Below are positions 13,491 through 64,000 of a stretch of DNA of 64,000 nt, piece after piece. Numbering within the stretch: the first letter of the stretch is position 1; each line of letters starts with the position of its first letter. The DNA lies in NCBI GenBank assembly GCA_002688135.1, contig NZCD01000031.1, positions 4,544-68,543 of the forward strand. Reading direction: 5' to 3'. A program made the position numbers and the translations under genes. This stretch comes from Parcubacteria group bacterium. Lineage in GTDB: Bacteria > Patescibacteriota > Patescibacteriia > Magasanikbacterales > GCA-002688135. The notes beneath the pieces were generated by a model. The model had not been told where the DNA came from and did not search any database. It worked only from the letters and a program-made list of their open reading frames with translations.

Positions 13491-13587
13491 GAAGCACCTC
13501 CTTTTTAGGTAATTTAAAGACCGTTAGATGTCTGTAAAGTAGCACAGAAATGAGTGTTTGTCAAGATCAATCCACATACATATCAAC

Positions 13588-13602
13588 AATATATGCTATA
13601 CT
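13588..13602 (+). promoter_or_regulatory. Extended -10 element TGcTATACT within the conserved TATATGCTATACT motif
   Basis: Same 13-mer as at 2893-2906. It lies only 7 nt upstream of the ATG at 13610, implying leaderless or near-leaderless expression, or some other function for the motif. Confidence 0.3.
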
Positions 13603-13609
13603 ATCGTTC

Positions 13610-23292: not shown

Positions 23293-23293
23293 T

Positions 23294-25141
23294 ATGTGCG
23301 CAATCAATGGATTCACATGGCGCGATCTTGATACGATCACAGCCATGAACAACATCACGAAACACAGGGGGCCGGATGATTCCGGTGTCTTTTGTGATGA
23401 CGGAATTTCGTTGGGGCATAACAGACTCTCAATTATCGATCTCTCTCAAAAAGCACATCAACCCATGAAAACAGAAGATGGCAGATTTACAATTTCGTAT
23501 AATGGAGAACTTTATAACTTCAAAGAACTTAAAAAACAGTTGAGCGAAAAAGGTGTTCAGTTTAATTCAGACTCAGACACAGAAGTTATTCTCAAATTAT
23601 ACAAAGAAAAAGGCATTGAGATGCTACAAGACTTAATCGGAATATTCGCAATTTCAATTTGGGATAATCACAAAAAAGAATTATTTCTCGCTCGCGACCA
23701 CTTCGGCATCAAACCACTCTACTATCACTACGATGGCGCGCGACTCATCTTCTCATCAGAAGCAAAAGCACTCTTTGAACACACCATTTCAAAAGATGTA
23801 GATCCAATTTCACTGAACAATTATTTGAGATTCCTATATTGCGTTGGTCCGCGCACAATGTGGCAACACATCAAAAAAATGCCAGCCGGATCATACGGAA
23901 TCTACAAAGATGGAAATTTTCAAATTAAAAAATACTTCTCGCTCAAAACAAAAGACATTCCAGAAAAGAAACATGAAATCGAAGAACTCATTCGAGGGCA
24001 CGTCAGAGAGGCTGTAAAATCACAACTCATATCAGATCGACCTGTTGGAATATTTCTCTCCGGAGGATTAGATTCCTCTATCGTCGCAGCAATAATGGCA
24101 CAAGAAGCATCTGGAACAATAAACTCATTTTCAGTCGGTTTCGACACAAAAGTAAATCCAGAAAAATTCAATGCAGATTTTAAAATAGCTGCCCAAACAG
24201 CAAAACATTTTGGCTTTAATCATCACGAAGTGACTATCACAAATCAAGACATGGTAGATCATCTGGAAGATTGCATCTATTCAATGGATGAGCCTGTTTC
24301 AAATCCTATTCAAGTTGCAACATACATACTCGCAAAAAAAGCAAAACAGGATGTTGCAGTAGTTTTGGGTGGAGATGGCGGAGATGAATTATTTGGTGGA
24401 TATGATAGATATTATTACTACAGAATGCTTGATCGAATACAGAAAATCGCGCCATTTGTAAAAAATAAAAAGAATGCAAATTTGATTGCAAAGCTATTCA
24501 AAAAACCAGCTCTCGCACGAAAACTCCAATCCGAGCCAGGGCTGGGTCGTTTCTTCACAATGATGGCACAAAAAGAAGATCTATTAAGAAAATTCGTAAA
24601 ACCAGGATACAACAACGGTATACTATCAATAGGATCATACAAGCAATTTTTTGACAATAATCTTGAAGATCCAATTAACAAAATGATGTGGGCAGACGCT
24701 CAAACATGGCTCACAGATGAATCCCTCATCAGATCAGACAAGCTCACGATGGCGCATGGTTTAGAGCAGCGTGTACCACTTCTTGATCCGCGTCTGGTAG
24801 AATTGGCATATTCAATTCCATCACATCACAAACTCCACTCAAAATCAGAAGGCAAAAAAATATACAAAGACGCATTCGCACCAATGCTTCCAGAATTTGT
24901 ATTAGAACAAAAGAAACGAGGATTCTTCTCGCCAACTGCAAAATGGCTTCGCGAAGAACCTCTAAAATCATACATCTACAAAATCCTCTCGCCAACATAC
25001 TGCCCACAAACCGCAGACTGGTTCGATTGGGACGCAATCAAAAAAATCACAGACGACCACATAAATTTCAAAGGATACGCACTCAACACAATTTGGTCGA
25101 TTGTCACCCTACAAATCTGGGCTAAGAAATTTCTGAATTAA
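23294..25141 (+). CDS. Asparagine synthase (glutamine-hydrolysing) family amidotransferase (AsnB/WbpS-like)
   Basis: N-terminal MCAINGF puts the Cys2 nucleophile of class-II glutamine amidotransferases in place. SGGLDSS is the PP-loop ATP pyrophosphatase motif. Typical ~615 aa size. A GGAGG RBS is present. Confidence 0.85.
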
Positions 25142-42372: not shown

Positions 42373-44220
42373 ATGAAAAACCCACTAACAAACAAAACCC
42401 TACAAATAATCATAGCTGCGACACTCGCGGGGTTCTTTTTTATAGGAAGACATTTGACGATGTGGTGGTATCAGCTGCAGCAGGGCGCACCATTCAACTT
42501 TTTTACTTTTGAGCAAATCGATCCGCTTTCAAATCTCGCGCCTATTTTCAGACAGGTTTTGGATGGGGGGTTATATGTTACGGATGGACGAGTTTTGGAA
42601 TGGGTTGCAGGACCAAGTCTGTGGTCGATATTATCTCCAATAGTCGGATATCCAATTTTAGCTATCACACAAAACATATCTCTAACATTTTTGATTGGAA
42701 CATTACTATCAGCAGTCTTAACATTTATCGCAGCATACGCAATCGCAAAACATCTAACGAAAAATCACTGGTGGGCGATCTTATCATCATTTATATTTGT
42801 AAACGCAACACTCATTGTATTATTTATTCTGCCGATTGATATTGAAGGATTAAAAGTTCTAGCAAGATCATTTTGGCTAGGTTCACCTCCAGGAGATATT
42901 TTGATGAGTAGATATGTCAGTTTTTCAGTTTTCCCAACCTGGCCAGTATTTGTATTTTCATTACTTGGATTATTAAAACTTGCAGCAAACCCAACATCAA
43001 AAAAATGGTTCTGGTTCACCGCAATCTCGTGCGCAATGCTCACACACATGTATGTCACAGATGCGATGTACATTTTCGGCGGGATGGCATTAATGGTGGT
43101 TTGGTTCTTTTTACAAACAGATACACAACGAGCAAAAACATATCTTAAAACAATATTTCTTTCTACTGCATTATCAGCGCCATACATTTTCAATTATCTC
43201 TCAATCCAAGCTCTCCCGCATGCACAAGAGTTAGTTGAACGACTCGGCGCAGAATTCACACATAGTTTTCGTGTAAGCGCATGGCCACAATATTTGGTAA
43301 TGATAATTCTAGCCTACGGAGTTTGGAAATGGGGGAAAGCAGAAAACAGAACTCCAGAAGCAACAGTAATTGGATCTTTAGTTCTCGGTGGAATCGGAAT
43401 TTTGAACATGCAATTGATTTTGGGATTCAATCCACATCCTCCGGTTTGGCCTGTACATCAATTTTATTTAGGATATGCCGCAGCATTCCTTGTAATCGCG
43501 CATCTATTTATTACACATGGATTAAGATCAGCATGGCTTAAAAAAGCCGGAACAACAGTTTTAGTAATTGCATCAGTCGCAGTTATTGGACGAGCAATCC
43601 AAGCAGAATTTATTTCAGGGACACACTTTCAAGAATCATCAGTCATGCCAGAAAATATCCGAAACTCACTAGAATGGATTAACGATAATACACCAACAAA
43701 CAGTGTCGTCGCATCACCATCAGCAACAACAAATAGCTTAATTCCTGTATTTACCGGGGCACACTCAATCCAACCTCTTGCTGTTACCTCCGCCGCGCCA
43801 CTATCAGAAGTAGTTGGACGCTGGTTGACCATCTCAAAGCTCTATGGTATTCCTGAAACAACTCTGGTAACATCTCTGAAAAAAGAGCACACAGATATCG
43901 ACAATTTTGCTCTCGATTCAGAAAACGCAACTGCCATATTCCTCTTCGATACATTCTTCTGGAAAAAGGGATTGGGCGCATTCGATGAAGGCCGACAATT
44001 ATTCATTCCAGATGAAGCGATCGAAAAGATTATTGCCGAATATCAAGCGCTTCCAGAGGGTGAAGAATTGCTTAAAACATATCGAATGGATTATCTATAT
44101 GTTGGACCATACGAACGGGCACTTGTCATGAAAGACCTGGACTACGAATTTCTTAAAAAAGTCTATGACGAAGATGACGTTCAAATTTATAAAATCAATC
44201 AATCATTTCTAGAATTATAG
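42373..44220 (+). CDS. Polytopic membrane protein with C-terminal extracytoplasmic domain; paralog of the membrane moiety of the 34887 GT2 fusion (candidate GT-C-like transferase/polymerase)
   Basis: Shared blocks: LGGIGILNMQLILGFNPHPPVW vs LPIGIVLNLQLLLGFNPQPDHW; PENIRNSLEWINDNTPTNSVVASPSATTNS vs PDIQESFAWINENVDKDSVIISPSTRTST; and C-terminal QIYKI vs DIYKIL. Confidence 0.55.
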   Translation: MKNPLTNKTLQIIIAATLAGFFFIGRHLTMWWYQLQQGAPFNFFTFEQIDPLSNLAPIFRQVLDGGLYVTDGRVLEWVAGPSLWSILSPIVGYPILAITQNISLTFLIGTLLSAVLTFIAAYAIAKHLTKNHWWAILSSFIFVNATLIVLFILPIDIEGLKVLARSFWLGSPPGDILMSRYVSFSVFPTWPVFVFSLLGLLKLAANPTSKKWFWFTAISCAMLTHMYVTDAMYIFGGMALMVVWFFLQTDTQRAKTYLKTIFLSTALSAPYIFNYLSIQALPHAQELVERLGAEFTHSFRVSAWPQYLVMIILAYGVWKWGKAENRTPEATVIGSLVLGGIGILNMQLILGFNPHPPVWPVHQFYLGYAAAFLVIAHLFITHGLRSAWLKKAGTTVLVIASVAVIGRAIQAEFISGTHFQESSVMPENIRNSLEWINDNTPTNSVVASPSATTNSLIPVFTGAHSIQPLAVTSAAPLSEVVGRWLTISKLYGIPETTLVTSLKKEHTDIDNFALDSENATAIFLFDTFFWKKGLGAFDEGRQLFIPDEAIEKIIAEYQALPEGEELLKTYRMDYLYVGPYERALVMKDLDYEFLKKVYDEDDVQIYKINQSFLEL

Positions 44221-51720: not shown

Positions 51721-53163
51721 ATGAAGACTATATTCATGACCATTTCTAGGGGTGGAACCGCACGAAATCTCTTGCAAAGTGAGGTATTTAGTGCGCTCAA
51801 AGAGTCTGGAAACAAACTGGTTATTATTGCACCTGCATCAGAGGATGGGACTTTTCAGAAACTCTGTGATGCTCCAAATATACATCTTGAAAAAATGGTT
51901 GAGCTGCCGTGGCGATGGGCAGATCGAGTTTTGGTAGGGATTCACAAGGGACTAATTTACAATAAGAGCACGATGTTCCGTGATAAGTTCGGAATTTACG
52001 ATCCTAAAGAGGGGAGCATGTTCAAGTACTGGATGCGAAAAATTTTTATTGCGCCATTTTCAAAATCAAAATCTCTCAAAAGATTTGCTAGAAAATTAGA
52101 TAAAGTAATAGCACCCGCACGACACTACGAAGAAATTTTTTCAAAACACAAACCAGACGTTCTTTTTTCGACAAGCATGATTGAAGATCAAGAAGTTGAA
52201 ATCATGAAACAAGCGGAAGCTCATGGTGTGCCAATAATCGCAATGCCAAAAACATGGGACAATCCATCAAAAATAAATCTTCGAGTAAAACCGAATAAGA
52301 TAATTGTGTGGGGAGAATATTCAAGAGATGAGGTGGTAAAATATTCGGCAATAGACGAAAAAGATATTGAGGTGTGCGGAATTCCACAATTCGACACATA
52401 TCGAAATATCGATCTGATTGATACACGCGAAGAATTTTGCACAAAATGGGGATTTGATCCAAACAAAAAAATTATTGTATTTGGATCTGAAGGCCGCATC
52501 ACACCACAAGATAAAGACATCGCCAGTCAGATTGCCGCTTGGGTAAAAAATGGTGGGATTGAAAATTCGCAATTGTTCATACGGCCTCACTTCATGTATC
52601 CGGAAGATCCCAAAAAATTCAAAAACATCGAAGCACAAGAAAATGTAAAAGTTGATAATTCTTGGAATCGAATTGATGGGTTTCGTGACAATTGGGATTA
52701 TTCAATGAAACAAATTTCACATTTCGCAAATCTGATGGTTCATGCGGATCTAATGATAACAACAGGCTCAACACTTTCAATAGACGCAGCTGCAACTGAC
52801 ACGCCAGTCATCAATATATATTTTGACACGCCAGATCCAAAACCATTTAACGAATCTGTGAGACGCTGGTACACATCAGAACATTACTCTCATGTGCTTG
52901 AAACTGGAGCTGTAAGTTTGGCACATTCAATGGAAGAGCTGAAAGAATACACAAAACGATATCTCAAAACACCATCTATCAGACAACAGCAAAGAAAAAA
53001 CTTGATTGAAAAATTTGGATACAAAAACGACGGAAAATCCGCAGAAAGAATCGCAGCTTCTGTTCTTGCGTTTATTGGCGAAGAACCTAAATCTCACACA
53101 CACCATGATTCTGTATTAATAACTAAGAGTGAAAAACAAGAACAGAAAGTAATGAGTAATTAG
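51721..53163 (+). CDS. GT-B-like transferase with RPH motif; TagB/TagF (CDP-glycerol glycerophosphotransferase)-like. Alternative reading: CMP-sugar (sialyl/Kdo)-transferase-like
   Basis: Motif order FGSEGRI ... IRPHFMYPED ... LMITTGSTLSIDAAATDTPVINIYFD mirrors the TagF-family order YAPTWR ... K/RPHP ... ISDYSS..D..LL.KPII. Paralog of the 56029 gene. The last codons lie in element A3. Confidence 0.4.
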   Translation: MKTIFMTISRGGTARNLLQSEVFSALKESGNKLVIIAPASEDGTFQKLCDAPNIHLEKMVELPWRWADRVLVGIHKGLIYNKSTMFRDKFGIYDPKEGSMFKYWMRKIFIAPFSKSKSLKRFARKLDKVIAPARHYEEIFSKHKPDVLFSTSMIEDQEVEIMKQAEAHGVPIIAMPKTWDNPSKINLRVKPNKIIVWGEYSRDEVVKYSAIDEKDIEVCGIPQFDTYRNIDLIDTREEFCTKWGFDPNKKIIVFGSEGRITPQDKDIASQIAAWVKNGGIENSQLFIRPHFMYPEDPKKFKNIEAQENVKVDNSWNRIDGFRDNWDYSMKQISHFANLMVHADLMITTGSTLSIDAAATDTPVINIYFDTPDPKPFNESVRRWYTSEHYSHVLETGAVSLAHSMEELKEYTKRYLKTPSIRQQQRKNLIEKFGYKNDGKSAERIAASVLAFIGEEPKSHTHHDSVLITKSEKQEQKVMSN

Positions 53164-53238
53164 TAATGAGTAAAGCGGTCGGCGAAGCCGACAAAAAGCC
53201 ACAGGCTTTACCTCATTACTAATTACTCATTACGCGCT
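53148..53238. repeat. Family-A hairpin element (AGTAATGAGTAATTAGTAATGAGTAAAGC / GCTTTACCTCATTACTAATTACTCATTAC) with nested GTCGGC-gaa-GCCGAC hairpin
   Basis: ~28-bp near-perfect arms. The inner 57 nt are near-identical (3 mismatches) to the copy at 62575. Overlaps the stop codon of the 51721 gene. Confidence 0.75.
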
Positions 53239-53250
53239 ACTAAATTTTCT

Positions 53251-54639
53251 ATGAAAATTTCACAACTCCGAAAAATCTGCCAAACAAGCTCAAGCTCACC
53301 ATCGGCAGCATCACAAACCATCTGGGGCCAAACCAACAGATTCTTTTCGATATACCTAACTCGACTTTTCATCAACACTAAAGTCACTCCTAACCAAATC
53401 ACTATTTTGGGGTCTGCGGTTTTCATCGCGGGTTGTACACTTTTTGTGTTCGGTACAATGAAGTTCAATCTTATCGGATTTGCAATGGTTGTACTGGCTT
53501 ACATTCTGGATGCATCAGATGGAGAACTTGCTCGCTACAGACGTCATCAAGGTCAAACTTCAAAGTACGATCTCGGAGGAGTATATGTAGAGCCAACATC
53601 ACACGACACACAATACGGATTCATGCTGGTTCCCATGGGATATGGAGCGATGATTGCTACAGGCTCTGCCTTACCATTAGTAGCCGCAGCATTTGCAACA
53701 ATTGGAAAACTCATGTTTCGATTACTGGAATTTCGATACATGGCTGCAGCGCGTCATATCGATGAAATTCAAGGCGCAACATATGGCTGGAAGCAAAACG
53801 TACAAACGCCAACCACACTCACGTATCGACTCTATAGAAATTTCTCAACGGTGTGTGGAATGATGCCACTATTGCTAATTGCTATTCTCGTTGACAGAAT
53901 CGATATATTTTTATATGCTTATGCAGTTCTCTTTATAGTATTATGGGCGGTGAAATTTGATCGAAATGTAGAAAAGATACAAAAAAAGATGCAAAAAAAT
54001 GAGACGACAAATCTGCCCAAAATCATCCTATTTGATTTTGACGGAACACTTGTAGATACTATGCATGGATACGCAGATCTAGCTGCGCAAATAATGCATG
54101 AGGCTCATGGAGCCCCGACAGATGAGGCACGTGATGCATATATGCATACATCAGGATTACCATTTTGTCAGCAACTGGAAGTAATCTATCCTCAAGATGA
54201 AAAGAATACTGGAGCAGCTGAAAGATTTGAAAATGAAAAACTCGAGATTATGTGGGCAGCTAATCCTGATGAGGATTGTGATGAGGTATTGACGAAGCTC
54301 AAAGAAAAAGGAATCACTGCAATCATCTCAAGCAACAACACTCAAGAAAATATTACAGCATATTCGCAAAAACATGCACTGAAAGTAGATGATGCGCTCG
54401 GTTACAAAGAAGGATTTGCAAAAGGCCGAGATCACGTCGAACACATAAAAGAAAAGTATAATGTATCTGAATCAGACTTATGGTTTATCGGAGATTCTTT
54501 CGCAGACGGAAAAAAAGCCCACGCACTAAACATCAACTTCATCGCTCGAACAGGAACAAATTCAGCAGACGCATTCTTAGAAAAATTTCCAAATATACAA
54601 ACTATCGATTCTCTAAGCGAGCTACTCAAACTTTTATGA
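53251..54639 (+). CDS. Fusion protein: N-terminal CDP-alcohol phosphatidyltransferase-family membrane domain + C-terminal HAD-superfamily phosphatase
   Basis: N-terminal half: ~6 TM helices with DASDGELARYRR, which fits the D-G-x2-A-R CDP-OH phosphotransferase motif. C-terminal half: ILFDFDGTLVDT (HAD motif I, DxDGT), ISSNNTQ (motif II) and GDSFADGKK (motifs III/IV). Confidence 0.65.
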   Translation: MKISQLRKICQTSSSSPSAASQTIWGQTNRFFSIYLTRLFINTKVTPNQITILGSAVFIAGCTLFVFGTMKFNLIGFAMVVLAYILDASDGELARYRRHQGQTSKYDLGGVYVEPTSHDTQYGFMLVPMGYGAMIATGSALPLVAAAFATIGKLMFRLLEFRYMAAARHIDEIQGATYGWKQNVQTPTTLTYRLYRNFSTVCGMMPLLLIAILVDRIDIFLYAYAVLFIVLWAVKFDRNVEKIQKKMQKNETTNLPKIILFDFDGTLVDTMHGYADLAAQIMHEAHGAPTDEARDAYMHTSGLPFCQQLEVIYPQDEKNTGAAERFENEKLEIMWAANPDEDCDEVLTKLKEKGITAIISSNNTQENITAYSQKHALKVDDALGYKEGFAKGRDHVEHIKEKYNVSESDLWFIGDSFADGKKAHALNINFIARTGTNSADAFLEKFPNIQTIDSLSELLKLL

Positions 54640-55874
54640 ATCACGAGAATAAAAAACGAAAAATCTGTGTCACCCTAATCAACCGCGCAAATTACGGTCG
54701 ATTAAAATCAGTGATGACAGCCATAAAAAATCATCCAGACTTGGAACTCCAGGTTATTTGTGGTTCAGCAATGTTGATTTACAATTATGGAAATGCGATA
54801 GATGTGGTTGAGCGTGACGGCTTTAAAGTTGACGAGAAAATCTTCATGCACGTTGCCGGTGAGACACCCATGACGATGGCAAAGTCAGTTGGAATGGGAA
54901 TGATAGAATTCCCTGCAGCATATGACAGATTAAAACCAGATATTGTAATGGTGAATGCAGATCGATATGAAACATTGGCTATTGCAGCATCAGCATCATA
55001 TATGAACATTCCAGTAGCACATCAGTTGGGTGGAGAATGCACAGGAACTATCGATGACTATGTCAGGCATGCAGTAACAAAACTTTCAGATATTCATTTT
55101 GCAGCTCACACAAAAGCAGCAGAACGCGTCGTTATGATGGGAGAGGATCCATCACGAGTATACGTCACAGGAAATCCGTCACTAGATGTTATTCATGAAT
55201 CACAATCAAATGTCACGAATCAACAATTCTGGGAGAAGTATGGAGGAAAAGGTGGTGGTGTAAATATTGATGAACCATTCTTACTCTCAATTTTCCATCC
55301 CGTTACAACTGATTACGGAAAAAACCGCACAAATGCAGAAGCACTCTTAAGCGCAGTTGATGAGTTAGAAATTCCAACAATCATGCTCTGGCCAAACAAT
55401 GACGCAGGGTCAGATGAAATTGCAAAAGCAATGCGTGTGAGATTCGATCAGGGAAACATGGAAAACCTTCACTTCATCAGAAACCTAGCTATTGAAGATT
55501 ACCTAACTCTCATGGCACGCTCATCTGCTGTGATCGGAAACTCATCATCAGGAATTATGGAAGCAGGATTTTTAGGAGTTCCATGTGTAAACATCGGAAA
55601 CAGACAAGAGGGGCGCGAGCAAACTCACAATGTAATCAATGTAGAACCAAATAAAGAAAAGATAATCGAGGCAATCAAACAATCAATTGAAAAGAAATCA
55701 TATCCAAAAGACCCGCTATTTGGTGATGGAAAATCAGGAAAACGAATCGCAGACATTCTCGCAACAATCCCACTAATGCGACCAAAGATTTATTTTGAAG
55801 CTTCAGATGAGACGAAGAAGAGTTACGTAGATCTTGTTGAACGTGAAGTGAAGCAACGAATGACAACGGAGTAA
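54636..55874 (+). CDS. UDP-N-acetylglucosamine 2-epimerase, hydrolysing type (NeuC/LegG-like)
   Basis: KICVTLINRANYGRLKSVMTAI; QLGGECTGTIDDYVRHAVTKLSDIHF matches the NeuC G-G-E-x-T-x-G...D...RHAITKLS.LHF block. The start ATG overlaps the upstream TGA (ATGA), so the track start 54480 was trimmed. Confidence 0.7.
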   Translation: MNHENKKRKICVTLINRANYGRLKSVMTAIKNHPDLELQVICGSAMLIYNYGNAIDVVERDGFKVDEKIFMHVAGETPMTMAKSVGMGMIEFPAAYDRLKPDIVMVNADRYETLAIAASASYMNIPVAHQLGGECTGTIDDYVRHAVTKLSDIHFAAHTKAAERVVMMGEDPSRVYVTGNPSLDVIHESQSNVTNQQFWEKYGGKGGGVNIDEPFLLSIFHPVTTDYGKNRTNAEALLSAVDELEIPTIMLWPNNDAGSDEIAKAMRVRFDQGNMENLHFIRNLAIEDYLTLMARSSAVIGNSSSGIMEAGFLGVPCVNIGNRQEGREQTHNVINVEPNKEKIIEAIKQSIEKKSYPKDPLFGDGKSGKRIADILATIPLMRPKIYFEASDETKKSYVDLVEREVKQRMTTE

Positions 55875-55989
55875 ATAGAAGAGCTGCTTTTGAGAACGCA
55901 GTGCTCAAAAGCGTTACTATAAAACGAAAAAGGTTTGGTGGGAATAATATAGAATGGCTGCGATGGTATAGGAGGATCAATACTAATAC

Positions 55990-56017
55990 GGGATCCCTCC
56001 TATTGTCGGGATGACGT
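55990..56017. repeat. Family-C half element (GGGATCCCTCCTATTGTCGGGATGACG)
   Basis: GGATCC plus the GGGATGAC core, preceded by an ATAGGAGG...CCTCCTAT short inverted repeat. The track ORF start at 56011 lies inside it. Confidence 0.5.
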
Positions 56018-56028
56018 GGAACGAAGTT

Positions 56029-57402
56029 ATGAAAAAAATCTTCATGATGTTATCGCGCGGATTCGTCGCGCGCAACATGCTTCAAACTGAAGTAAAAAAA
56101 ACAATACTCGAGCAAGAGGATGTACAACTCATCCTCTTTGTTCCATCTAACATTCCTGATCACTTTCACAAAGAGGCAAATCATCCGCGCATCACAACAA
56201 TAGAATGTGAGGATGTGCAGTATGGTCCATTGCGTCGTAGATTCGCGCGATCAATGCAAAAGATGGTGTATTCAAAAACTGCGCAATATCTATTGCATTA
56301 TGGTGGCCGTCCATCAAAGAAGAATATGTCGTGGCCGTTTTTTATTGTTGCACATGGATTCTTCAAATTACTCTCATCAATGAAATTCTTTATTCCAGTC
56401 TGGAGATGGCTGGAGATCGCGACATGGCCAGACAAAATATATGATGAGCATTTCAAAGAACATAAACCAGATTTGGTAATTGCGACAAGTCTTAAAACAA
56501 AACGAGATGCAGCTATTTTGAAATCTGCAAAACGATTCAATGTGAAACCGATTGGTATCACACGAAGCTGGGATAATTTGGATCGAATGTTATTGCAAGT
56601 TGTGCCAGACAAGTTGGTAGTACAAAATGAGGCAATGAAAGAAATTGCAATAAAAGATCATGCGATAGATGAGAAAACTATTTTTGTTGCAGGATTCCCG
56701 CAGTTTGATTTGTATGATAATTCAGAAACATTCGACGACTACGAAACATTTCTAGAAAAAAGAAATTTCACGCCAGATCGAAAAGTCATATTCTTTGGTT
56801 CTGAAGGAGCATGGGCGCCGTATGGATACATGATTGCACAGGAGCTGATCGATATGGCAAACAAGGATGAATTTGTGCATCCAGTTCAGGTGATTGTGAG
56901 ACCGCACTTTTCAGATATTAACTTTGACAAAAAAAATGTATATGACGTAGTTGAGGGTAGACCGCTCACATATTACGACAATTACTTCCGTGTCTCAAAA
57001 ATGTTTACCGACAAATGGGACCCTTCATGGGAGGAAATGACAAACCTCGCAAACCAACTCAAGCATTCAGATATGCTCATCACATACGCCTCGACATTGT
57101 CACTAGAAGCAGCTATACTCGATACACCAATAATCAATATCGATTATCAGGCAAGACAAGAACCAAAAGGTGGACCATTCATGGGAACATTCTACCAATC
57201 CAGTCACTATTCTAGAATGGCAAACTCTGGAGCAATCAAATTTGCGCATTCACGAAATGAATTGAAAGCGCTCGTAAATCGATATCTTGAAAATCCAGAA
57301 TACGAAAAAACAGAACGAAAAAAATTCGCAAACTGGCTTGCGCCTTACACAGGAGAGGCTGGAAAGAGACTTGGCGACTTTATTATTCAACAGCTGTCGT
57401 AA
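56029..57402 (+). CDS. GT-B-like transferase with RPH motif, paralog of the 51721 protein (TagF-like)
   Basis: FFGSEGAW ... VIVRPHFSD ... MLITYASTLSLEAAILDTPIINIDYQ. The N-terminus MKKIFMMLSRGFVARNMLQTEV parallels MKTIFMTISRGGTARNLLQSEV of the paralog. Confidence 0.4.
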   Translation: MKKIFMMLSRGFVARNMLQTEVKKTILEQEDVQLILFVPSNIPDHFHKEANHPRITTIECEDVQYGPLRRRFARSMQKMVYSKTAQYLLHYGGRPSKKNMSWPFFIVAHGFFKLLSSMKFFIPVWRWLEIATWPDKIYDEHFKEHKPDLVIATSLKTKRDAAILKSAKRFNVKPIGITRSWDNLDRMLLQVVPDKLVVQNEAMKEIAIKDHAIDEKTIFVAGFPQFDLYDNSETFDDYETFLEKRNFTPDRKVIFFGSEGAWAPYGYMIAQELIDMANKDEFVHPVQVIVRPHFSDINFDKKNVYDVVEGRPLTYYDNYFRVSKMFTDKWDPSWEEMTNLANQLKHSDMLITYASTLSLEAAILDTPIINIDYQARQEPKGGPFMGTFYQSSHYSRMANSGAIKFAHSRNELKALVNRYLENPEYEKTERKKFANWLAPYTGEAGKRLGDFIIQQLS

Positions 57403-57470
57403 TGAGTAATGAGTAATGCGGGCTATCGCCTTGCGCGATCGCTTTACGCTTTACTCATTACGCATTACGA
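57397..57470. repeat. Family-A hairpin element (CGTAATGAGTAATGAGTAATGCG / CGCTTTACTCATTACGCATTACG)
   Basis: Inverted GTAATGAG arms overlapping the stop codon of the 56029 gene. Inner GC-rich palindrome GCGATCGC. Confidence 0.65.
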
Positions 57471-57476
57471 ATCTAT

Positions 57477-58601
57477 ATGAAACTAGCAATTGTCTTGGGA
57501 ACAAGACCAGAAATAATCAAAATGGCACCAATTGTAAACGCATGCAAAAAAATGAATGTGGATTTTTTCATTTTGCATACTGGGCAGCATTACTCTGAAA
57601 ACATGGATTCAGTATTTTTCAAGGATTTGGAGCTGCCACAGCCGGATTACAATTTAGGAGTGGGGAATCAACCACATCGCAAACAAGTTGGGTTGATGAC
57701 ACGTCACATGCTCGAGGTATTCAAACAAGAAAAGCCAGATGTGGTGATTGTTCAAGGTGATACAATTTCAGTATTGTCTGGAACGCTCGCTGCAAAACGT
57801 CTGGGAATAAAAGTTGCACATCATGAAGCGGGACTACGAAGTCACGATCCATCGATGATTGAAGAAACTAATCGAGTAACCACAGATCATTTATCAGACT
57901 TTCTATTTGCACCAACAAAAGAAGCAACAAAAAATTTAGTAGAAGAAGGATACACAAGTGATCGAATTTTTGAAACAGGAAACACGATTGTTGATGCAGT
58001 TTTATACGCTAAAGATTTAGCAGAAAAAAAATCGAAGATTCTAGAGAAATTAGACCTTGTTAAAGGTAAATACGTTCTGATCACAGCTCATAGAAGTGAA
58101 AACGTAGATAAACGAACAAACCTCAAGGACATGATTCGCGGGATCGAATCAACAGCTGCATCATATCCAGAATTAACCTTCGTATATTCAATGCATCCTC
58201 GCACAAAGAAAATGATCGACCGTTTTGGACTTAATATGCCGCAGCACATGAAAATCATCGAACCAGTTTCATTTCTAGATTTTCTACAACTTGAAACACA
58301 CGCACGACTCATCATGACAGACTCAGGAGGCTTACAAGAAGAAGCCTGTATTTTAAAAGTTCCGTGTGTAACGATGCGCCTAAACACAGAACGTCCAGAA
58401 ACAGTTCGATTAGGAATAAATACATTAGCTGGAACACACCCCGATATGATCCGAGCAAAAGTAAAAGAAATGATGTCAAAAGATAATATCGAATGGAAAA
58501 ATCCATTTGGAGACGGAAAAGCAGCAGAACATATTTTGGAGATATTAGAAAAAGAAATGCAAACTCAACCTGAAAAGGTTGCAGAGTTGACAAATCAATA
58601 A
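57477..58601 (+). CDS. wecB: UDP-N-acetylglucosamine 2-epimerase (non-hydrolysing)
   Basis: MKLAIVLGTRPEIIKMAPIV; HHEAGLRS; MTDSGGLQEEA; 374 aa. These are canonical WecB/MnaA motifs. Confidence 0.9.
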   Translation: MKLAIVLGTRPEIIKMAPIVNACKKMNVDFFILHTGQHYSENMDSVFFKDLELPQPDYNLGVGNQPHRKQVGLMTRHMLEVFKQEKPDVVIVQGDTISVLSGTLAAKRLGIKVAHHEAGLRSHDPSMIEETNRVTTDHLSDFLFAPTKEATKNLVEEGYTSDRIFETGNTIVDAVLYAKDLAEKKSKILEKLDLVKGKYVLITAHRSENVDKRTNLKDMIRGIESTAASYPELTFVYSMHPRTKKMIDRFGLNMPQHMKIIEPVSFLDFLQLETHARLIMTDSGGLQEEACILKVPCVTMRLNTERPETVRLGINTLAGTHPDMIRAKVKEMMSKDNIEWKNPFGDGKAAEHILEILEKEMQTQPEKVAELTNQ

Positions 58602-58637
58602 TATTAACTACACTGTGCGAAGCACACAGGAGAAAAT

Positions 58638-59615
58638 ATGCAAAACGATTACTACAAAGGAAAAAGGGTTTTAGTCACTGGCGCAGACGGCTTCATGGGG
58701 TCACATCTCGTGGACGCATTATTAGCGCAGGGAGCTGAAGTTTCTGTGTTTGTGCGCGGAAATTCTGTAACAGGCACCAACATTAATCAGTTAAAAAATC
58801 TGTCACACGCAGAAGGTAAGCTCAATAAGGTGATAGGTGGTGATGTAGGAAATCCCGATACGATTTCGCTCATTAAAAACAGCGCACCAGAAATCGTTTT
58901 TCATTTAGCAGCTGACGCATACGTTCCAAAGTCTTTCGAGCAGCCTCTTGAGGTTTGGCAGACAAATGCTACGGGGACGTTGCATGTGCTTGAAGGAGCT
59001 CGTGCATGTGGTGCACAACGCATAGTCTGCACATCAAGTTCAGAGGTATATGGGCATTGTGCTGGGTCAATTGATGAGCTTACGGAAATGCGGCCAACAT
59101 CAATCTATGGAGCCTCAAAATGTGCCGCAGATAGAGTAGCGTTCGCACATCACACACAGTTCGGTACACCAGTTGCAATTGTGAGACCGTTCAATACGTA
59201 TGGCCCCCGACATACATATGATGTAATCCCGTACTTCATTAAACTAGCGTTTGATGGAAAAGATCTGACAGTTCATGGAGATGGAACACAAACTCGCGAC
59301 TTTACCTATGTTGATGACACGGTCCGGGGATTCCTTATCATGGGAGAACATCCAGATGCAGTTGGAAGAGCTGTGAATTTTGGAACTGGTACTGACACAA
59401 CAGTAAATGAAATCGCAGTGGCAATTCAAAAACATACCGGAACAGGAATCGGAATTATCCACGGAGAAGCTCGTATGGCAGAAGTTCAAAAAATGCGCAG
59501 CAACCCAGGACTTGCAAAAGAACTGTTTGGATGGGAGGCACAAGTAAGTATTGATGAAGGAATTCGTCGAAACGTAGAACACGTGAGAGCAGCACAGAGG
59601 GTTGTTGCCGTATAA
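58638..59615 (+). CDS. NAD(P)-dependent sugar-nucleotide 4,6-dehydratase/epimerase (extended SDR; Gmd/RfbB-like)
   Basis: VLVTGADGFMGSHLV; TSSSEVYG; YGASK (YxxxK). The N-terminal layout is loosely GDP-mannose-4,6-dehydratase-like. Because fcl is present in the locus a Gmd would be expected, but the specificity is unproven. Confidence 0.7.
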   Translation: MQNDYYKGKRVLVTGADGFMGSHLVDALLAQGAEVSVFVRGNSVTGTNINQLKNLSHAEGKLNKVIGGDVGNPDTISLIKNSAPEIVFHLAADAYVPKSFEQPLEVWQTNATGTLHVLEGARACGAQRIVCTSSSEVYGHCAGSIDELTEMRPTSIYGASKCAADRVAFAHHTQFGTPVAIVRPFNTYGPRHTYDVIPYFIKLAFDGKDLTVHGDGTQTRDFTYVDDTVRGFLIMGEHPDAVGRAVNFGTGTDTTVNEIAVAIQKHTGTGIGIIHGEARMAEVQKMRSNPGLAKELFGWEAQVSIDEGIRRNVEHVRAAQRVVAV

Positions 59616-59780
59616 TCTTTGTGATAAAACTTTCAAGTTTCGGGGTATAATCGATGAACACTTGATGAGATATAAGCCGTAGCTTAGTCGAAGAAAGTTG
59701 AGTCGATTATAACCGAAAATTGAATTTTTTAGCCGAAGACTTATATGGAAAGAGCCCTCATAAAAGGAAAAGGTAGTCGT

Positions 59781-60389
59781 ATGATTAAGGAGAGAGTAAA
59801 GCTTCATCCTACTGCTGAAATCGGCGAAGGTGTCGAGATTGGTGATGGTACTAAAATTTGGGCGCAAGCACAGCTCGGCGCAGGCGCTCGACTGGGTGCT
59901 AATTGCGTAGTTGGAAAAGGAGCATACATTGATCGCGGAGTAAGAGTTGGAAATAATGTTATGATTCACAATTATGCATTATTGTACCGGCCGCTTACGG
60001 TGGAAGACAATGTGTTCATCGGACCACAAGTTGCAAATGCAAACGACCCAACCCCTATCGCAAACGTAATTCGCGACACTGCTAAGGATCCGGGTACGAC
60101 TTTCAAAAAAGGATGTCGTATCGGCATGGGCGCAACACTTGCACCAAATCTGACCATTGGCGAATACGCACAAGTAGACATGCGAGCACTCGTAACTCGA
60201 GATGTTCCGCCTCATGCTATTGTGAGAGGTGTGCCTGCAAAGATTGTCGGCTTCGCATGCTTTTGTGGAAAGAAGTTGGGGAAACATCCTGAAATTCAAA
60301 TGGGCGCAAGCATCCATCATAGATGTGCTGACAGCAGCTGTGCTAAAACAGTAACAATCCCACTTGAAAACTACAAAAGAATGAAATAA
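59781..60389 (+). CDS. Hexapeptide-repeat (LbH) acetyl/acyltransferase (PglD/NeuD/WbbJ-like)
   Basis: Hexapeptide repeats IGDGTKIWAQAQLGAGARLGANCVVGKGAYIDRGVRVGNNVMI. The track start (59745) was trimmed to MIKERVKL. Confidence 0.65.
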   Translation: MIKERVKLHPTAEIGEGVEIGDGTKIWAQAQLGAGARLGANCVVGKGAYIDRGVRVGNNVMIHNYALLYRPLTVEDNVFIGPQVANANDPTPIANVIRDTAKDPGTTFKKGCRIGMGATLAPNLTIGEYAQVDMRALVTRDVPPHAIVRGVPAKIVGFACFCGKKLGKHPEIQMGASIHHRCADSSCAKTVTIPLENYKRMK

Positions 60390-60444
60390 AATACGAGCAA
60401 CTCAATAGAGTTGCTTTTTACTACTCACTACAAACTAAACAGAT

Positions 60445-61602
60445 ATGACCTTAGAAGGAGTCACTACGAAAGTAGCAGATAGAACAAAGAGTGTTTCTTT
60501 GGTGAAAGATTGGATTCTACATTCCGGAATCCAAAACCAAAGCGAAAATAAAAAATTACACGGTGCATTTAATGCGTGGCATGACATCACAAACAACACC
60601 TATCCATACATGTATTCAGAAATCACAGGATATGGATTATCAACTCTCGCGCACATCGCAGCAGAATTTGGTGATAATGAATTGATCAGACAAAAAATTA
60701 CAGATGCGCATGTGTGGCTGCGGGATGTTGCATTGCATGAAAGTGGAGGAGTGAGAACACGAGATTACTATCCCGGAAGCTCTGCATACAACGAACACTT
60801 CGATTTCAAAAATGAAACACTCTATACATTCGATACCGGAATGGTATTGAATGGATTGATGTCAGCATACAATCTAACAAAAGACGAAACACTTTTAGAG
60901 ACGGCAAAAAAGAATGCAGACTTTCTGCTAAAAGCACAAAAAGAAGATGGATCAATCTACGCATATTGGGAAGCTCATAAAGATGAATGGGTAGACAGAC
61001 CAGAAAAATGGTCGTCACAAAGCGGGGCTTATCATGCAAAATGTGCTATCGGATTATATGCATTGGGGAAAGTTGCAGAAAACAAAAGCTGCATAGAAGC
61101 AGCGCTGAAGCTGTGTGAATACGCACTTACACTCCAACATGAAGACGGACGATTCGTTTCATTCCGCGAAACAACAAACACAGAGCTTCATCCACACACA
61201 TACACAATTGAGGGATTGATGTATGTTGCGCAGCAAGAAAATAATCAAAAATACAAAGAGGCTTGTAATCGAGCAATAGAATGGAGTTTCACCTTGCAGC
61301 GATCCAAAGGTGGAGTATCAAGGAGTGTGCACAATAACACTCCAAACGATAATGAAAGGGTAGACGTACTCGCACAAACACTGCGGATGGGAGCTGTCTT
61401 AAATCAATCAGAAGAAAAGCTTCAAAAACTAGAAAAGCAATTATCCTCATACCAAACAGAGGGCTTCATATACGGTTTTGATAATGATGGAAACAAGTTA
61501 TCTCACACAAATGCATGGGTTTCAATGTTCGCCATTCAGGCATTTTCATGCAGAAAAACGCAGGAAAAAGGCGAAAAAATCGATCTGATCAATCTCATCT
61601 AA
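60445..61602 (+). CDS. Hypothetical protein, probably (alpha/alpha)6-toroid fold (N-acylglucosamine 2-epimerase / six-hairpin glycosidase superfamily-like)
   Basis: 385 aa of helix-rich repeats of ~50 aa with aromatic/Gly turns (SEITGYGLSTL, DTGMVLNGLMSAY, TIEGLMYVAQ). No NeuB or TIM-barrel motifs. Low confidence. Confidence 0.3.
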   Translation: MTLEGVTTKVADRTKSVSLVKDWILHSGIQNQSENKKLHGAFNAWHDITNNTYPYMYSEITGYGLSTLAHIAAEFGDNELIRQKITDAHVWLRDVALHESGGVRTRDYYPGSSAYNEHFDFKNETLYTFDTGMVLNGLMSAYNLTKDETLLETAKKNADFLLKAQKEDGSIYAYWEAHKDEWVDRPEKWSSQSGAYHAKCAIGLYALGKVAENKSCIEAALKLCEYALTLQHEDGRFVSFRETTNTELHPHTYTIEGLMYVAQQENNQKYKEACNRAIEWSFTLQRSKGGVSRSVHNNTPNDNERVDVLAQTLRMGAVLNQSEEKLQKLEKQLSSYQTEGFIYGFDNDGNKLSHTNAWVSMFAIQAFSCRKTQEKGEKIDLINLI

Positions 61603-61627
61603 CGAGAGGTATCGCAACCTTCTTAAG

Positions 61628-61726
61628 TGTCATCCCAAGCGCTTATTCTAAAAAATATTTTTCTCTGGAGCCTGCCCTCGCGGATGCGGGGGAGGGATCC
61701 CTCGACTAAAACGCTCGGGATGACAG
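61628..61726. repeat. Family-C element variant (GTGTCATCCCAAGCG ... GAGGGATCCCTCGACTAAAACGCTCGGGATGACAG)
   Basis: Termini TGTCATCCC / GGGATGACA with an internal GGATCC. The right half is the reverse complement of the C2 terminal unit. Confidence 0.6.
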
Positions 61727-61835
61727 TTTCCGAATGCATTCAGGTATCCTCACAGCAACCTTGACAAAAGGCCGCAAAAAAAGTAGCATAACCGAAATAC
61801 TTGATACTTTATTCTTAATACTTGATACGTATTTC

Positions 61836-62579
61836 ATGTACAAAAATAAGCGATTTTTCGCGGTGATTCCAGCCAGAGGAGGATCAAAAGGAATACCTCG
61901 AAAAAACATCAAAGAGTGTGCTGGAAAGCCACTCATACAATGGACGATCGAAGCAGCAAAAAAATCTGCACTGCTCGATCGTTTTGTTGTTTCTACAGAT
62001 GATGAGGAGATTGGGAGAATTGCAACTGCGTGTGGCGCGGATATGCCGTTTGTACGACCAGAAGAATTATCTACAGATTCAGCCCGCGGAATCGATGTAG
62101 CAGCTCATGCGCTGCAATGGGCAAATGAAGAAAGTGGACCATATGATTATTGTCTCATCCTACAACCCACTTCGCCGCTTCGAAGCGTTGAAGACATTGA
62201 TGAATGCATACGCAAAGCAGTAGATACGAATGCGGATTCAGTGATGAGCATGTATGAAATTTCTGACATGTCGCCACGAAAGTTCAAGAGAATTGTGAAC
62301 GATAAAATTCTACCCATGGCAGCGGATGAAGGCGCAACAACTGCAGATCGACACGACAGCGAACCAATTTACAAACGAAATTGCGCGGTGTATCTCACGA
62401 AAGCAGAAGTAATGCTGCGCGGTGAATTGTTTGGCGATGACTCTCGTCCATACATCATGCCAGCAGACCGCTCAATCGACATTAACGAAACGTTGGATTT
62501 CAAGTTTGCCGAATTTCTGTTAAGCGAGCGGAGATCTAAGAAAGGTGCTGATCAACAGCAAGTAAAGAGTAAAGCGTAA
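61836..62579 (+). CDS. Acylneuraminate cytidylyltransferase family (CTP_transf_3; NeuA/PseF/KdsB-like) nucleotidyltransferase
   Basis: FFAVIPARGGSKGIPRKNIKECAGKPLIQW is the hallmark N-terminal motif of CMP-NeuAc/CMP-Kdo synthetase-type enzymes. The track start (61734) was trimmed to MYKNKRFFAVIP. Confidence 0.8.
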   Translation: MYKNKRFFAVIPARGGSKGIPRKNIKECAGKPLIQWTIEAAKKSALLDRFVVSTDDEEIGRIATACGADMPFVRPEELSTDSARGIDVAAHALQWANEESGPYDYCLILQPTSPLRSVEDIDECIRKAVDTNADSVMSMYEISDMSPRKFKRIVNDKILPMAADEGATTADRHDSEPIYKRNCAVYLTKAEVMLRGELFGDDSRPYIMPADRSIDINETLDFKFAEFLLSERRSKKGADQQQVKSKA

Positions 62580-62650
62580 TGAGTAAAGCGGTCGGCGAAG
62601 CCGACAAAAAGCCGTAGGCTTTCCCTCATTACGCTTTACTCATTACGCGT
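62561..62650. repeat. Family-A hairpin element, near-identical core to the 53148 copy
   Basis: GTAATGAGTAAAGCGGTCGGCGAAGCCGACAAAAAGCCGTAGGCTTTCCCTCATTAC. Overlaps the stop codon of the 61836 gene. Confidence 0.75.
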
Positions 62651-62660
62651 CACTAATTTT

Positions 62661-64000
62661 ATGAAAATAGTAATTACCGAGTCAAAAGACTACTCAAAGG
62701 AAGCAATCGATCTGTATGGTTCGATGGGCAATGTTGTGGTATGTAATAATCTCACACGTGCGGAATTTCTAAATATAACACAGGATGCAAAGCTTGTTGT
62801 GGTTCGTCTGGATCACACGCTAGATAGAGAATTTTTTGAAAATGCAAAAGAATTGAAAGCAATTGGAACGCCAACAACAGGTCTCGATCATATTGATAAA
62901 GATGCAGCAAAAAAACATGGAGTAAATATATATTCACTTCGTGGCGAACAAGCATACCTCGAATCAATTGCAGCAACGCCAGAGCACACTCTTGCACTCT
63001 TACTCTCTTTACTGCGAAGAGTACCAGCAGCACATAAACATGTGATGGAAGGTGGGTGGAACAGAAATTTATTTAAGGGGCATGAGATCAAAGGGTCAAC
63101 AATTGGTATTTACGGATTCGGAAGAGTCGCGCGATTATTCGCAAGTTATGTGCATAATATGGGAGCGAAAGTAACTGCTTTTGATCCCTATGTAGATAAA
63201 CGTGTGATGGAAGATCATGATGTTATGTGGGTTGAGCGAGATGAGCTTTTCAAGCAGAGCAATATTTTGATGATTCACGCACTACTTACACCACAAACCA
63301 AAAACTCAATTGGTGAAAAAGAATTAGCCTTACTTCCACAAGGAGCATTTATCGTAAATACAGCGAGAGGACAAATCATTGAGGAAAAAGCACTTGTTGA
63401 AAGATTGCATCTCAAGAGCATAGCGGGGATCGCAGTTGATGTGTTAGCAGACGAACGCGATGATGGAGATTGGTTCAAAACAAGCTTGTTACACGAATAT
63501 GCCAAGCATCACGAAAATGCTATCATTACGCCTCACATTGCAGGAGCAACATACGACTCAATGGAATCAACAGAAAATTTTATTGCCAAAAAATGCATCA
63601 GATTTATGACAGGTAAAAACACAGAACAGGACAATAAACACTTTGACGATAAATGGATGGAAGCAATCACAAAACGAAAGGGACAGGAATTTTCCCTGTA
63701 TGTACCTGAAGATGAGAAACCAAAAACACAAAGACAATTCAACTTGCATAACTATATGGAATTCATCGGAAAGCAAGTGAAGGGCAGGGGTTTTACATCA
63801 TCGCTTGAGCTCGGCGCAGGGCGCGGGACAATTTCGCTATATTTGAAAAAAAGATTTGGATTCGATGTCACACTTAACGATGTTTCAGATAATGCGATGG
63901 AACTCGCGCGTGCAAACTTTCAATACTTCAATGAATCAGCAGAATTTCAAGTTGGTGACGCTGCAACACTTCCATTTCCAGATAACTCTTTTGATGTTGT
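62661..64000 (+). CDS. Fusion: D-isomer-specific 2-hydroxyacid dehydrogenase (N) + class-I SAM methyltransferase (C), 3' partial (runs off the window)
   Basis: Translated manually; the ORF is absent from the track because there is no stop in the window. GIYGFGRVARLF (GxGxxG NAD site), NTARG and PHIAG are D-2-hydroxyacid-dehydrogenase motifs. After aa ~330, LELGAGRGTISLYL and LPFPDNSFDV are methyltransferase motifs I and post-I. Confidence 0.7.
   Translation, partial: MKIVITESKDYSKEAIDLYGSMGNVVVCNNLTRAEFLNITQDAKLVVVRLDHTLDREFFENAKELKAIGTPTTGLDHIDKDAAKKHGVNIYSLRGEQAYLESIAATPEHTLALLLSLLRRVPAAHKHVMEGGWNRNLFKGHEIKGSTIGIYGFGRVARLFASYVHNMGAKVTAFDPYVDKRVMEDHDVMWVERDELFKQSNILMIHALLTPQTKNSIGEKELALLPQGAFIVNTARGQIIEEKALVERLHLKSIAGIAVDVLADERDDGDWFKTSLLHEYAKHHENAIITPHIAGATYDSMESTENFIAKKCIRFMTGKNTEQDNKHFDDKWMEAITKRKGQEFSLYVPEDEKPKTQRQFNLHNYMEFIGKQVKGRGFTSSLELGAGRGTISLYLKKRFGFDVTLNDVSDNAMELARANFQYFNESAEFQVGDAATLPFPDNSFDV

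Follow-up and report, generated by a model that had tools for sequence, protein, structure and literature searches.

A histidine-variant CDP-alcohol phosphotransferase-HAD fusion lies among nonulosonic-acid and hexosamine genes at the tail of a marine surface-glycan island

We analyzed the end of a 64-kb stretch of DNA (the window) that forms part of a 72,535-bp TARA Oceans metagenome scaffold, where ten genes, all on the + strand and here called A to J in order, run from 51.7 kb to the window's end. Our preferred reading, which we hold tentatively and with slightly less than even confidence, is that this distal part of a surface-glycan island brings together three sub-modules rather than one new pathway: a nonulosonic-acid (NulO) branch (C, I, J, and a further gene, K, just past the window), an N-acetylhexosamine (HexNAc) branch (E to H), and a phosphodiester-forming step attributed to B, a fusion of CDP-alcohol phosphotransferase and HAD domains; two paralogous GT-B transferases, A and D, lie on either side of B and C. 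The observations behind this reading concern family membership and fold, motif conservation, and the order, fusion, and co-occurrence of genes, drawn from the window, from compared loci (L numbers, with L001 being the window's own contig), and from homologous proteins (P numbers); three further marine contigs carry identical genes. All open reading frames named in an earlier note on this DNA were found on the + strand, at its stated positions or close to them, and its gene list omitted H.

The NulO branch starts with C (54636-55874), whose start overlaps the stop codon of B (ATGA) and which encodes a hydrolyzing 2-epimerase of UDP-GlcNAc (or another NDP-HexNAc) of the NeuC/LegG type (TIGR03568, 396 bits; cutoff, 235.9). 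Gene I (61734-62579; its start may be the Met codon at 61836) encodes a NeuA-type CMP-nonulosonate synthetase that matches CTP_transf_3 (PF02348, 86 bits) and a CMP-Neu5Ac synthetase of solved structure (PDB 6ifd, E = 8.8e-34), and K, a second NeuA-type gene that begins 1 nt after J, likewise passes PF02348; both fall below the cutoff of the PseF equivalog model (158 bits for I; cutoff, 205.7). J (62661-64000 in the window, continuing to 64511 of the contig; 616 amino acids) joins a PGDH-like D-2-hydroxyacid dehydrogenase (2-Hacid_dh_C, 160 bits; PDB 1wwk, E = 8e-38; PGDH equivalog, 209 bits against a cutoff of 454) to a class I S-adenosylmethionine-dependent methyltransferase. This fusion had been recognized before and is confirmed by Pfam, but it does not close the operon, as K and other genes follow. 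The catalytic residues R236, E265, and H292 of J are invariant in an alignment of relatives, and its dehydrogenase subfamily, marked by the motifs TPTTGLDHI and RVPAAHxHV, has at least 411 metagenomic relatives; we know of no role assigned to this subfamily.

To place J in context, we used loci (among L097 to L176) fetched through its dehydrogenase domain and thus independently of A, D, and B. Where the flanks were sufficient (21 loci), CTP_transf_3 was present in 20, NeuC in 19, NeuB in 18, and an A/D-like gene in 11, in the usual order NeuB-NeuC-CTP_transf_3-dehydrogenase, often followed by the A/D-like gene; NeuB was not nearby in the other 3. Members of the J subfamily thus regularly form a fourth gene beside NeuB, NeuC, and NeuA, and J taken by itself is no sign of a hydroxy-acid substituent pathway. 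C, I, and J share 40 to 55% identity with their counterparts (NeuC, CMP-synthetase, and dehydrogenase) in NeuB-containing cassettes. The NeuC, WecB, and NeuA-type enzymes reported earlier are present, and the observation that the window holds neither NeuB nor an aminotransferase stands. In L022, L036, and L095, J is flanked by NeuC and the CMP-synthetase, which prompted the idea that J replaces NeuB; we rejected it, as NeuB lies just upstream in L117, a locus on the contig of L095, and accompanies the subfamily in most well-flanked loci. The Acinetobacter ElaABC 8-epimerization system was also considered as a model for J and is an analogy only, ElaA being a Gfo/Idh/MocA protein and ElaC a short-chain dehydrogenase/reductase (SDR), neither of them a 2-hydroxyacid dehydrogenase.

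The proteins that might transfer such an acid are A (51721-53163) and D (56011 or 56029 to 57402, of which 56029 appears to be the true start), which Pfam and NCBIfam place in the TagB/TagF-BFO_1060 superfamily of GT-B transferases. They are 31% identical, and an alignment and neighbor-joining tree of homologs separate them into two old paralog clades, A-type and D-type. The motif order described for them previously (FGSEG, RPHF, TDTPxINI) is found in both, as FGSEG, RPHF, and TDTPVINI in A and as FGSEG, RPHF, and LDTPIINI in D, and the AF2 model of A has a pLDDT of 93. A search recovered 133 homologs, often labelled "CDP-glycerol glycerophosphotransferase family"; the few with taxon-specific names are mostly Patescibacteria/Parcubacteria. 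CMP-sugar-acid and CDP-alcohol donors both leave CMP, and A is probably a CMP-releasing transferase. For A, D, or both, a CMP-nonulosonate donor seems more likely than a CDP-polyol donor, because their match to the NCBIfam family BFO_1060_trans is the stronger one (69 bits for A and 46 for D) and because relatives of A and D lie beside NulO cassettes. The A/D-like proteins of the J-subfamily loci, which are 22 to 30% identical to A or D, match BFO_1060 only, and L043 has the order A/D, CTP_transf_3, NeuB, NeuC, A/D. Members of the BFO_1060 family are genetically required for the transfer of Pse/Leg onto ManNAcA in Tannerella forsythia, and the Tannerella enzymes themselves carry a TagB-like domain (PMC5420450). 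The earlier reading of the paralogs as TagB/TagF therefore survives in part: both pass the gathering score of Glyphos_transf (PF04464; 33 bits for A and 25 for D, against 22.1), while the BFO_1060 match and the genomic context favor a CMP-sugar-acid transferase, the option that had been left open.

The same proteins are central to the rival that survives best, which we nevertheless consider unlikely: a teichoic-acid-like system in which A and D would transfer polyol or cyclitol phosphates from CDP donors, serving as primase and polymerase in the manner of TagB and TagF, B would make a lipid-linked primer from the same CDP-alcohol, the HAD domain would trim the terminal phosphate, WecB would supply the ManNAc of the linkage unit, and the NulO genes would decorate another part of the glycan. 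WecB is indeed a neighbor, as is the case for MnaA in teichoic acid pathways, but the precomputed Pfam lists of the contig contain no TagA- or TagO-type genes. The Glyphos_transf matches are consistent with such a system; however, sequence searches of the PDB with A alone and with a 21-sequence profile of the family matched no structure, the profile not reaching TagF even at E ≤ 10, and a direct comparison of residues with TagF was dropped because these searches gave no TagF alignment. TagF has two conserved catalytic/pyrophosphate-binding histidines; the A/D family offers a single candidate, H290 of the RPH motif, which is kept in at least 90% of 50 sequences and is Tyr in two A-type orthologues. 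Gene neighborhoods speak on both sides. In L024, L026, and L042, which show no NulO genes within the stretch in view, an A-type gene is directly followed by B and a CDP-cyclitol cassette, a Glyphos_transf-like gene precedes an NTP_transferase-HAD fusion in L096, and A-type and B-type domains occur in one polypeptide in P0157 (the A part being 30% identical to A over 450 residues), whereas the 72.5-kb contig carries no gene for TagD, TarI/J, a kinase, or a PF00483 nucleotidyltransferase in its Pfam lists, and the match to BFO_1060 and the NulO-cassette context point to CMP-sugar acids. The teichoic-like proposal of the earlier note thus lacks a donor-making enzyme for a CDP-alcohol in the window.

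Protein B (53251-54639) consists of a polytopic membrane CDP-alcohol phosphotransferase domain (residues ~1-250), in which a 19-residue Kyte-Doolittle scan finds hydrophobic segments at about 50-82, 133-161, and 217-235, followed by a HAD domain (residues ~257-462), as identified by Pfam, NCBIfam, and PDB matches; a shorter start proposed by the gene caller, 53485, would truncate the part shared with homologs. The fusion described previously is thus real. Among solved structures AF2299 (PDB 4o6m, E = 2.7e-8) is its closest relative, and its best curated family is archaetidylinositol-phosphate synthase (33.8 bits), which confirms the kinship to the DIPPS/AF2299 branch, the DIPPS-plus-phosphatase logic having been pointed out earlier. 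The signature of B reads D87-x2-D90-G91-x2-A94-R95-x14-G110-x3-E114-x3-H118(D119), and alignments show that it is conserved among relatives: 108 of the best 150 have G-x3-D/E-x3-H and only 1 has the canonical G-x3-D-x3-D. A HMMER scan of 1.84 billion representatives recovered 116 relatives of B at E ≤ 1e-30, and a 5.8-billion-protein collection yielded 32 matches at E ≤ 0.001, about 10 of them full-length B-like fusions. B is, as judged from its sequence, a member of a distinct His-variant clade, and the conservation of the variant across that clade argues that the active site works and is altered rather than decayed. In the nearest characterized relatives (the AIP, PIP, and DIPP synthases and AF2299), the acceptor is a phosphorylated alcohol and the product is dephosphorylated later.

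The N-terminal half of B also occurs as a standalone protein of ~255 amino acids in many metagenome-assembled genomes (MAGs), mostly named Patescibacteria, and B-type domains are fused elsewhere to an APH kinase (P0161), an IspD-like NTP transferase (P0162 and P0164), a HAD domain (P0166 and ~10 others), or the A-type GT-B domain mentioned above. Of the 36 B-family loci compared, about 20 contain an A/D gene, often immediately next to B. After a standalone B gene there almost always come three others: an IPCT-like nucleotidyltransferase fused to an AroB-like sugar-phosphate cyclase, an APH kinase resembling homoserine kinase, and another IPCT-like nucleotidyltransferase (L095 10001-17269, L022, L024, L029 to L034, L036, and L041), often with an added Zn-dehydrogenase; in L095, the one locus annotated in detail, an inositol-monophosphatase-family gene is also part of the cassette. 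This arrangement looks like a CDP-cyclitol pathway, and the network around B would fit a Kennedy-type route in which an alcohol is converted to an alcohol phosphate and then to a CDP-alcohol, from which B transfers, with a phosphatase acting at some point along the way and a physical tie to the A/D transferases. In the window itself and in the close relatives L015, L016, L019, and L097, no kinase or PF00483 transferase was found.

Other partners of B-type genes are drawn from phosphonate metabolism. The phosphonate genes PepM, Ppd (phosphonopyruvate decarboxylase), and Fe-ADH lie beside B in L011, L044, L045, and L047 and upstream in L016, and L011 (59-6030) adds a HepD/MPnS-like cupin and a PepM-nucleotidyltransferase fusion, a hint that CMP-phosphonates or hydroxyalkylphosphonates may also be substrates of B-type enzymes. 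The phosphonate papers searched make no mention of CDP-alcohol transferases, and a phosphonate reading was discarded for the window, which contains none of PepM, Ppd, and Fe-ADH. Separately, P0191 (814 amino acids) combines a B-type domain with GINT1_N (129 bits), the N-terminal domain of plant glucosamine inositolphosphorylceramide transferase 1, a possible hint that the B clade works on phospho-head-group glycoconjugates.

The HAD half of B matches HAD_2 (66 bits, residues 259-432) and retains motifs I to IV (D262-F-D-G-T, S-S-N-N at ~360, the K of FAKGRDH, and G414-D-S-F-A-D). Its PDB matches include beta-phosphoglucomutase-like proteins, and its matches to characterized enzymes are all weak (E ≥ 0.0016), so that its sub-function is not readable from them; a role as Neu5Ac-9-phosphate phosphatase was set aside, as no such enzyme was among the PDB matches at E ≤ 1. 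These matches bear on a second rival, which we regard as rather improbable, in which the HAD domain would act upstream of B rather than after it, as a sugar-phosphate phosphatase or beta-phosphoglucomutase-type mutase feeding the nucleotide-sugar supply of a NeuC-type epimerase or NTP transferase, with the fusion reflecting pathway proximity only. The HAD domain has a NeuC-type epimerase as its fusion partner in L017 (654-2540) and an NTP transferase in P0017/L096, while L019 encodes it separately. In the window, the NeuC-type gene begins in overlap with the HAD-encoding end of B; this is an epimerase type that is also fused to an IspD-like NTP transferase in L013 (11442-13475). Set against this are the roughly ten independent B-HAD fusions and the inositol-monophosphatase-family gene at a comparable place in the L095 standalone-B cassette, which fits a post-transfer phosphatase.

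The least probable alternative, that B would make a phosphatidylinositol- or phosphatidylglycerol-like phospholipid and is merely embedded in the island with no chemical link to the glycan, draws on its closest characterized families (archaetidylinositol-phosphate and phosphatidylinositol-phosphate synthases), on reported clusters of an NTP transferase, a CDP-alcohol phosphatidyltransferase, and a HAD protein, one of them fused (PMC9246714), on triple fusions of nucleotidyltransferase, CDP-alcohol transferase, and HAD domains (P0023 and P0024) whose HAD domain is homologous to that of B, and on the overall rarity of B beside NulO cassettes, but it sits poorly with the lack of an inositol-phosphate synthase gene in the window, with the canonical GxxxDxxxD of P0023 and P0024 as opposed to the His variant of the window clade, with the tight linkage of B to the flippase and the A/D transferases (one protein fusion included), and with the switching of partner cassettes between cyclitol and phosphonate, which would be expected of a decoration more than of a housekeeping lipid.

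The HexNAc branch that completes our preferred three-part reading occupies the four genes after D. E (57477-58601) is a nonhydrolyzing UDP-GlcNAc 2-epimerase (WecB/MnaA; TIGR00236, 394 bits; cutoff, 210) that would supply UDP-ManNAc, and F (58638-59615) is an extended SDR acting on an NDP-sugar, of the dehydratase, decarboxylase, or epimerase type (Epimerase/GDP_Man_Dehyd, ~200 bits; 228 bits against a LegB-like model with a cutoff of 475). G (59745-60389) is a left-handed beta-helix acyl- or acetyltransferase related to NeuD/PglD (Hexapep, 102 bits; TIGR03570, 83 bits against a cutoff of 161), and H (60445-61602) is a cytoplasmic (alpha/alpha)6-barrel with the fold of the N-acylglucosamine 2-epimerase superfamily, a class that takes in cellobiose 2-epimerase, mannose isomerase, and YihS. 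The order WecB-SDR-H recurs on the unrelated-looking contigs L177 to L179. One of these, L179, also carries a formyltransferase, an Inos-1-P_synth-family gene, a short NDP-sugar dehydrogenase, an SDR, and a TPR protein, resembling the end of the window's contig. The NDP-sugar dehydrogenase encoded past the window (L001 14860-15741, contig ~65304-66185; 293 amino acids) has the N-terminal and central domains and no C-terminal domain, a short form that is kept in L022, L028, L036, and L179.

Taken together, these assignments allow us to propose how the stretch might function; here the substrates, the order of the steps, and the link of the phosphodiester step to the glycan are all what we infer. 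C would hydrolyze UDP-GlcNAc to a free 2-epimer of the ManNAc type, which a condensing synthase, NeuB, presumably encoded outside the island, would convert further; I and K would activate the resulting acid or acids with CTP, J would tailor the acid by oxidoreduction and methylation, and A and D would move it from the CMP ester onto a lipid-linked glycan, releasing CMP. E, together with F, G, the N-acylglucosamine 2-epimerase-like H, and the short dehydrogenase and SDR downstream, would make UDP-ManNAc-derived sugars, probably including the acceptor sugar. B would join a CDP-activated alcohol or lipid to the hydroxyl of a phosphorylated alcohol, with removal of the leftover phosphate by its HAD domain as the next step, following the logic of PIP, AIP, and DIPP synthases and their phosphatases, and the flippase encoded just upstream would export the product.

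Several observations weigh against this interpretation. For the NulO branch, NeuB is the main difficulty: the 72.5-kb contig has no PF03102 match, tblastn with three NeuB sequences gave a best E value of 0.86 (threshold E ≤ 10), and the flanks fetched for its close relatives L015, L016, and L097 did not show NeuB either. Most simply, the organism would encode NeuB elsewhere. Likewise, the precomputed Pfam lists of the contig contain no DegT aminotransferase. Looking past 64000 for neuB, an aminotransferase, or TagD, as the earlier note had proposed, turned up none of them on the rest of the contig. For A and D, the BFO_1060_trans scores stay well under that model's cutoff of 200 with partial model coverage, both proteins lie far below TIGR04396 (51 bits for A; cutoff, 125), and their best solved transferase folds are TagF and TarL, which are CDP-polyol enzymes and not sialyltransferases. 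In the NulO-free locus L024, moreover, the A-type gene lies between a GT4 gene and B with its CDP-cyclitol cassette, a context that argues for a CDP-alcohol donor at least there. For B, the full DG(x2)AR(x8)G(x3)D(x3)D motif, the lack of which the earlier note had named as a refuting condition, is not present: the first half is intact, but the spacer is 14 residues rather than 8, the third Asp is replaced by Glu, and the fourth by His. B itself scores 20.7 bits (residues 45-99) against CDP-OH_P_transf (PF01066), below the gathering score of 22 that its same-clade relatives pass (31.5 bits for P0157, 33.8 for P0161, and 28.6 for the L017 open reading frame), and no CDP-alcohol-forming enzyme was found in the window. 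The varying partner of the HAD domain, which in L019 is a separate overlapping gene, adds to these points, and a B gene accompanies the NulO cassettes in only 1 of the 21 well-flanked J-subfamily loci, so that the modules may be neighbors without a common product.

The wider layout of the locus indicates that these genes do not stand apart. About 45 kb more of glycan genes lie upstream, reaching at least 30 kb on the same strand, and they include four Wzy_C genes, GT2, GT4, PMT_2, many methyltransferases, an MBOAT protein, an asparagine-synthase-like amidotransferase, a formyltransferase, and a MOP-type flippase (Polysacc_synt, precomputed Pfam PF01943/PF13440; 50151-51512). Downstream, ~8 kb and four more genes follow before the contig ends, namely, a second CTP_transf_3 gene (K), the short NDP-sugar dehydrogenase, an SDR, and a TPR protein. 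The stretch is the tail of one co-directional surface-glycan island and not a separate module, because same-strand glycan genes continue upstream and base composition is uniform (GC content, 0.39 to 0.42 throughout, with nothing marking the stretch off); the description of a distinct module, with its cluster ending at the window's edge, is accordingly not tenable. The description of a co-directional operon fares better, in that the layout holds and a site scan found no terminator-like hairpins on the + strand within the gaps of the stretch, but not all junctions are short, with spacing from -4 nt (the B/C overlap) to ~210 nt; a promoter scan was uninformative, with promoter-like sites being as frequent in shuffled sequence. 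The flippase lies directly upstream of A/D-type and B genes in L011, L013, L014, L015, L020, and L021 and belongs to the conserved core of the gene set.

Some features of the surrounding island deserve mention in their own right. The four Wzy_C/O-antigen-ligase-like membrane proteins (4526-16192; 720 to 880 amino acids) include three in tandem, and upstream of them are a 1,224-amino-acid protein with no Pfam match and a protein with a Big_1/invasin-like domain. Within 22144-25141, a further Epimerase_2 gene, the third (WecB-like, 156 bits, below the cutoff), is followed by a 615-amino-acid asparagine-synthase-type amidotransferase, and this pair also occurs with a methyltransferase, PMT_2, and GT2 in L095. 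Another 615-amino-acid protein (42373-44220), with no Pfam match, is kept in the related glycan islands L013, L016, L019, and L021. Many of the closest MAG records (L015 to L043) are labelled uncultured Gammaproteobacteria, as opposed to the named homologs, nearly all of which are Patescibacteria, and these third-party annotation labels may be unreliable.

To our knowledge, the envelope chemistry of Patescibacteria and bacteria resembling the candidate phyla radiation (CPR) is essentially unknown, and the surface of these cells mediates attachment to host cells. Our search of the literature on teichoic or sialic acid genes of Patescibacteria found nothing specific to this module. The analysis defines a recurrent set composed of a flippase, two GT-B paralogs resembling TagB and NulO transferases, a His-variant CDP-alcohol phosphotransferase, and interchangeable cyclitol, phosphonate, or sialic-acid-like cassettes, a pattern suggesting that the surfaces of these cells combine phosphodiester-linked head groups with sugars resembling sialic acid, and the J subfamily provides a concrete lead for NulO tailoring. 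A bolder extension, which we consider speculative and put forward with low confidence, is that the His-variant B and the A/D GT-B enzymes, which are sometimes fused, would form a two-enzyme machine with which Patescibacteria-like bacteria build an envelope polymer or lipid-anchored glycan of a new class, in which NulOs and/or cyclitol or phosphonate head groups would be linked via phosphodiesters ("teichulosonic" type), with the phosphatase built into the membrane enzyme in the window clade and the NulO made without a locus-encoded NeuB. The value of these results lies in hypotheses and in testable enzymes with variant active sites, and no known principle is overturned.

The module is best regarded as a combination typical of the lineage, in which each of the three parts varies on a kind already known. 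B shares with IPCT/DIPPS, AF2299, and the AIP and PIP synthases a homologous membrane domain with the D-x2-DG-x2-AR half intact; its phosphatase domain in cis matches the logic of transfer to a phosphorylated alcohol followed by dephosphorylation, and its relatives include fusions to a nucleotidyltransferase, as in IPCT/DIPPS. Unlike in the IPCT/DIPPS and AIP/PIP systems, its signature ends in G-x3-E-x3-H after a 14-residue spacer, the window has no inositol-phosphate synthase or nucleotidyltransferase, and B, whose predicted activity rests on homology, is embedded in a glycan island beside a flippase and GT-B transferases. The closest published parallel in domain content is the "alternative" inositol-lipid cluster of Prevotella and Bacteroides, for which Heaver et al. 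(2022) described an NTP transferase, a CDP-alcohol phosphatidyltransferase, and a HAD protein, fused in Prevotella veroralis, with a proposed but unconfirmed role in making inositol lipids (PMC9246714). The same pair of domains is fused there as in B, although it lies beside an inositol-phosphate synthase and is read as lipid synthesis (PMC9246714), whereas B belongs to a glycan-tied His-variant clade. The view that such a fusion is undescribed in glycan loci must therefore be qualified: a fusion has been reported, but in inositol-lipid loci.

The remaining parts invite comparison with three systems. The NeuB-NeuC-NeuA pathway is matched here by an equivalog-level NeuC (C), the NeuA-type I and K, and J, whose dehydrogenase subfamily is a usual companion of the three genes, and it differs in that the 72.5 kb has no NeuB and no Leg/Pse aminotransferase and in that two CMP-synthetases flank J. 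TagB, TagF, and TarL share with A and D the GT-B fold, a passing PF04464 score, a comparable motif order, and a WecB neighbor, but A and D have no genes for CDP-glycerol or CDP-ribitol beside them, their His is not invariant, and their context here is that of NulOs. The Tannerella forsythia enzymes Tanf_01245 and TFUB4_00887 (BFO_1060) have D/E-D/E-G and HP motifs where A and D have S-E-G and R-P-H; even so, no NCBIfam family matches A and D better, and this one brings together a TagB-like domain, CMP-activated acids, and a ManNAc-type acceptor, for which CMP-synthetase and ManNAc supply genes are neighbors here as well.

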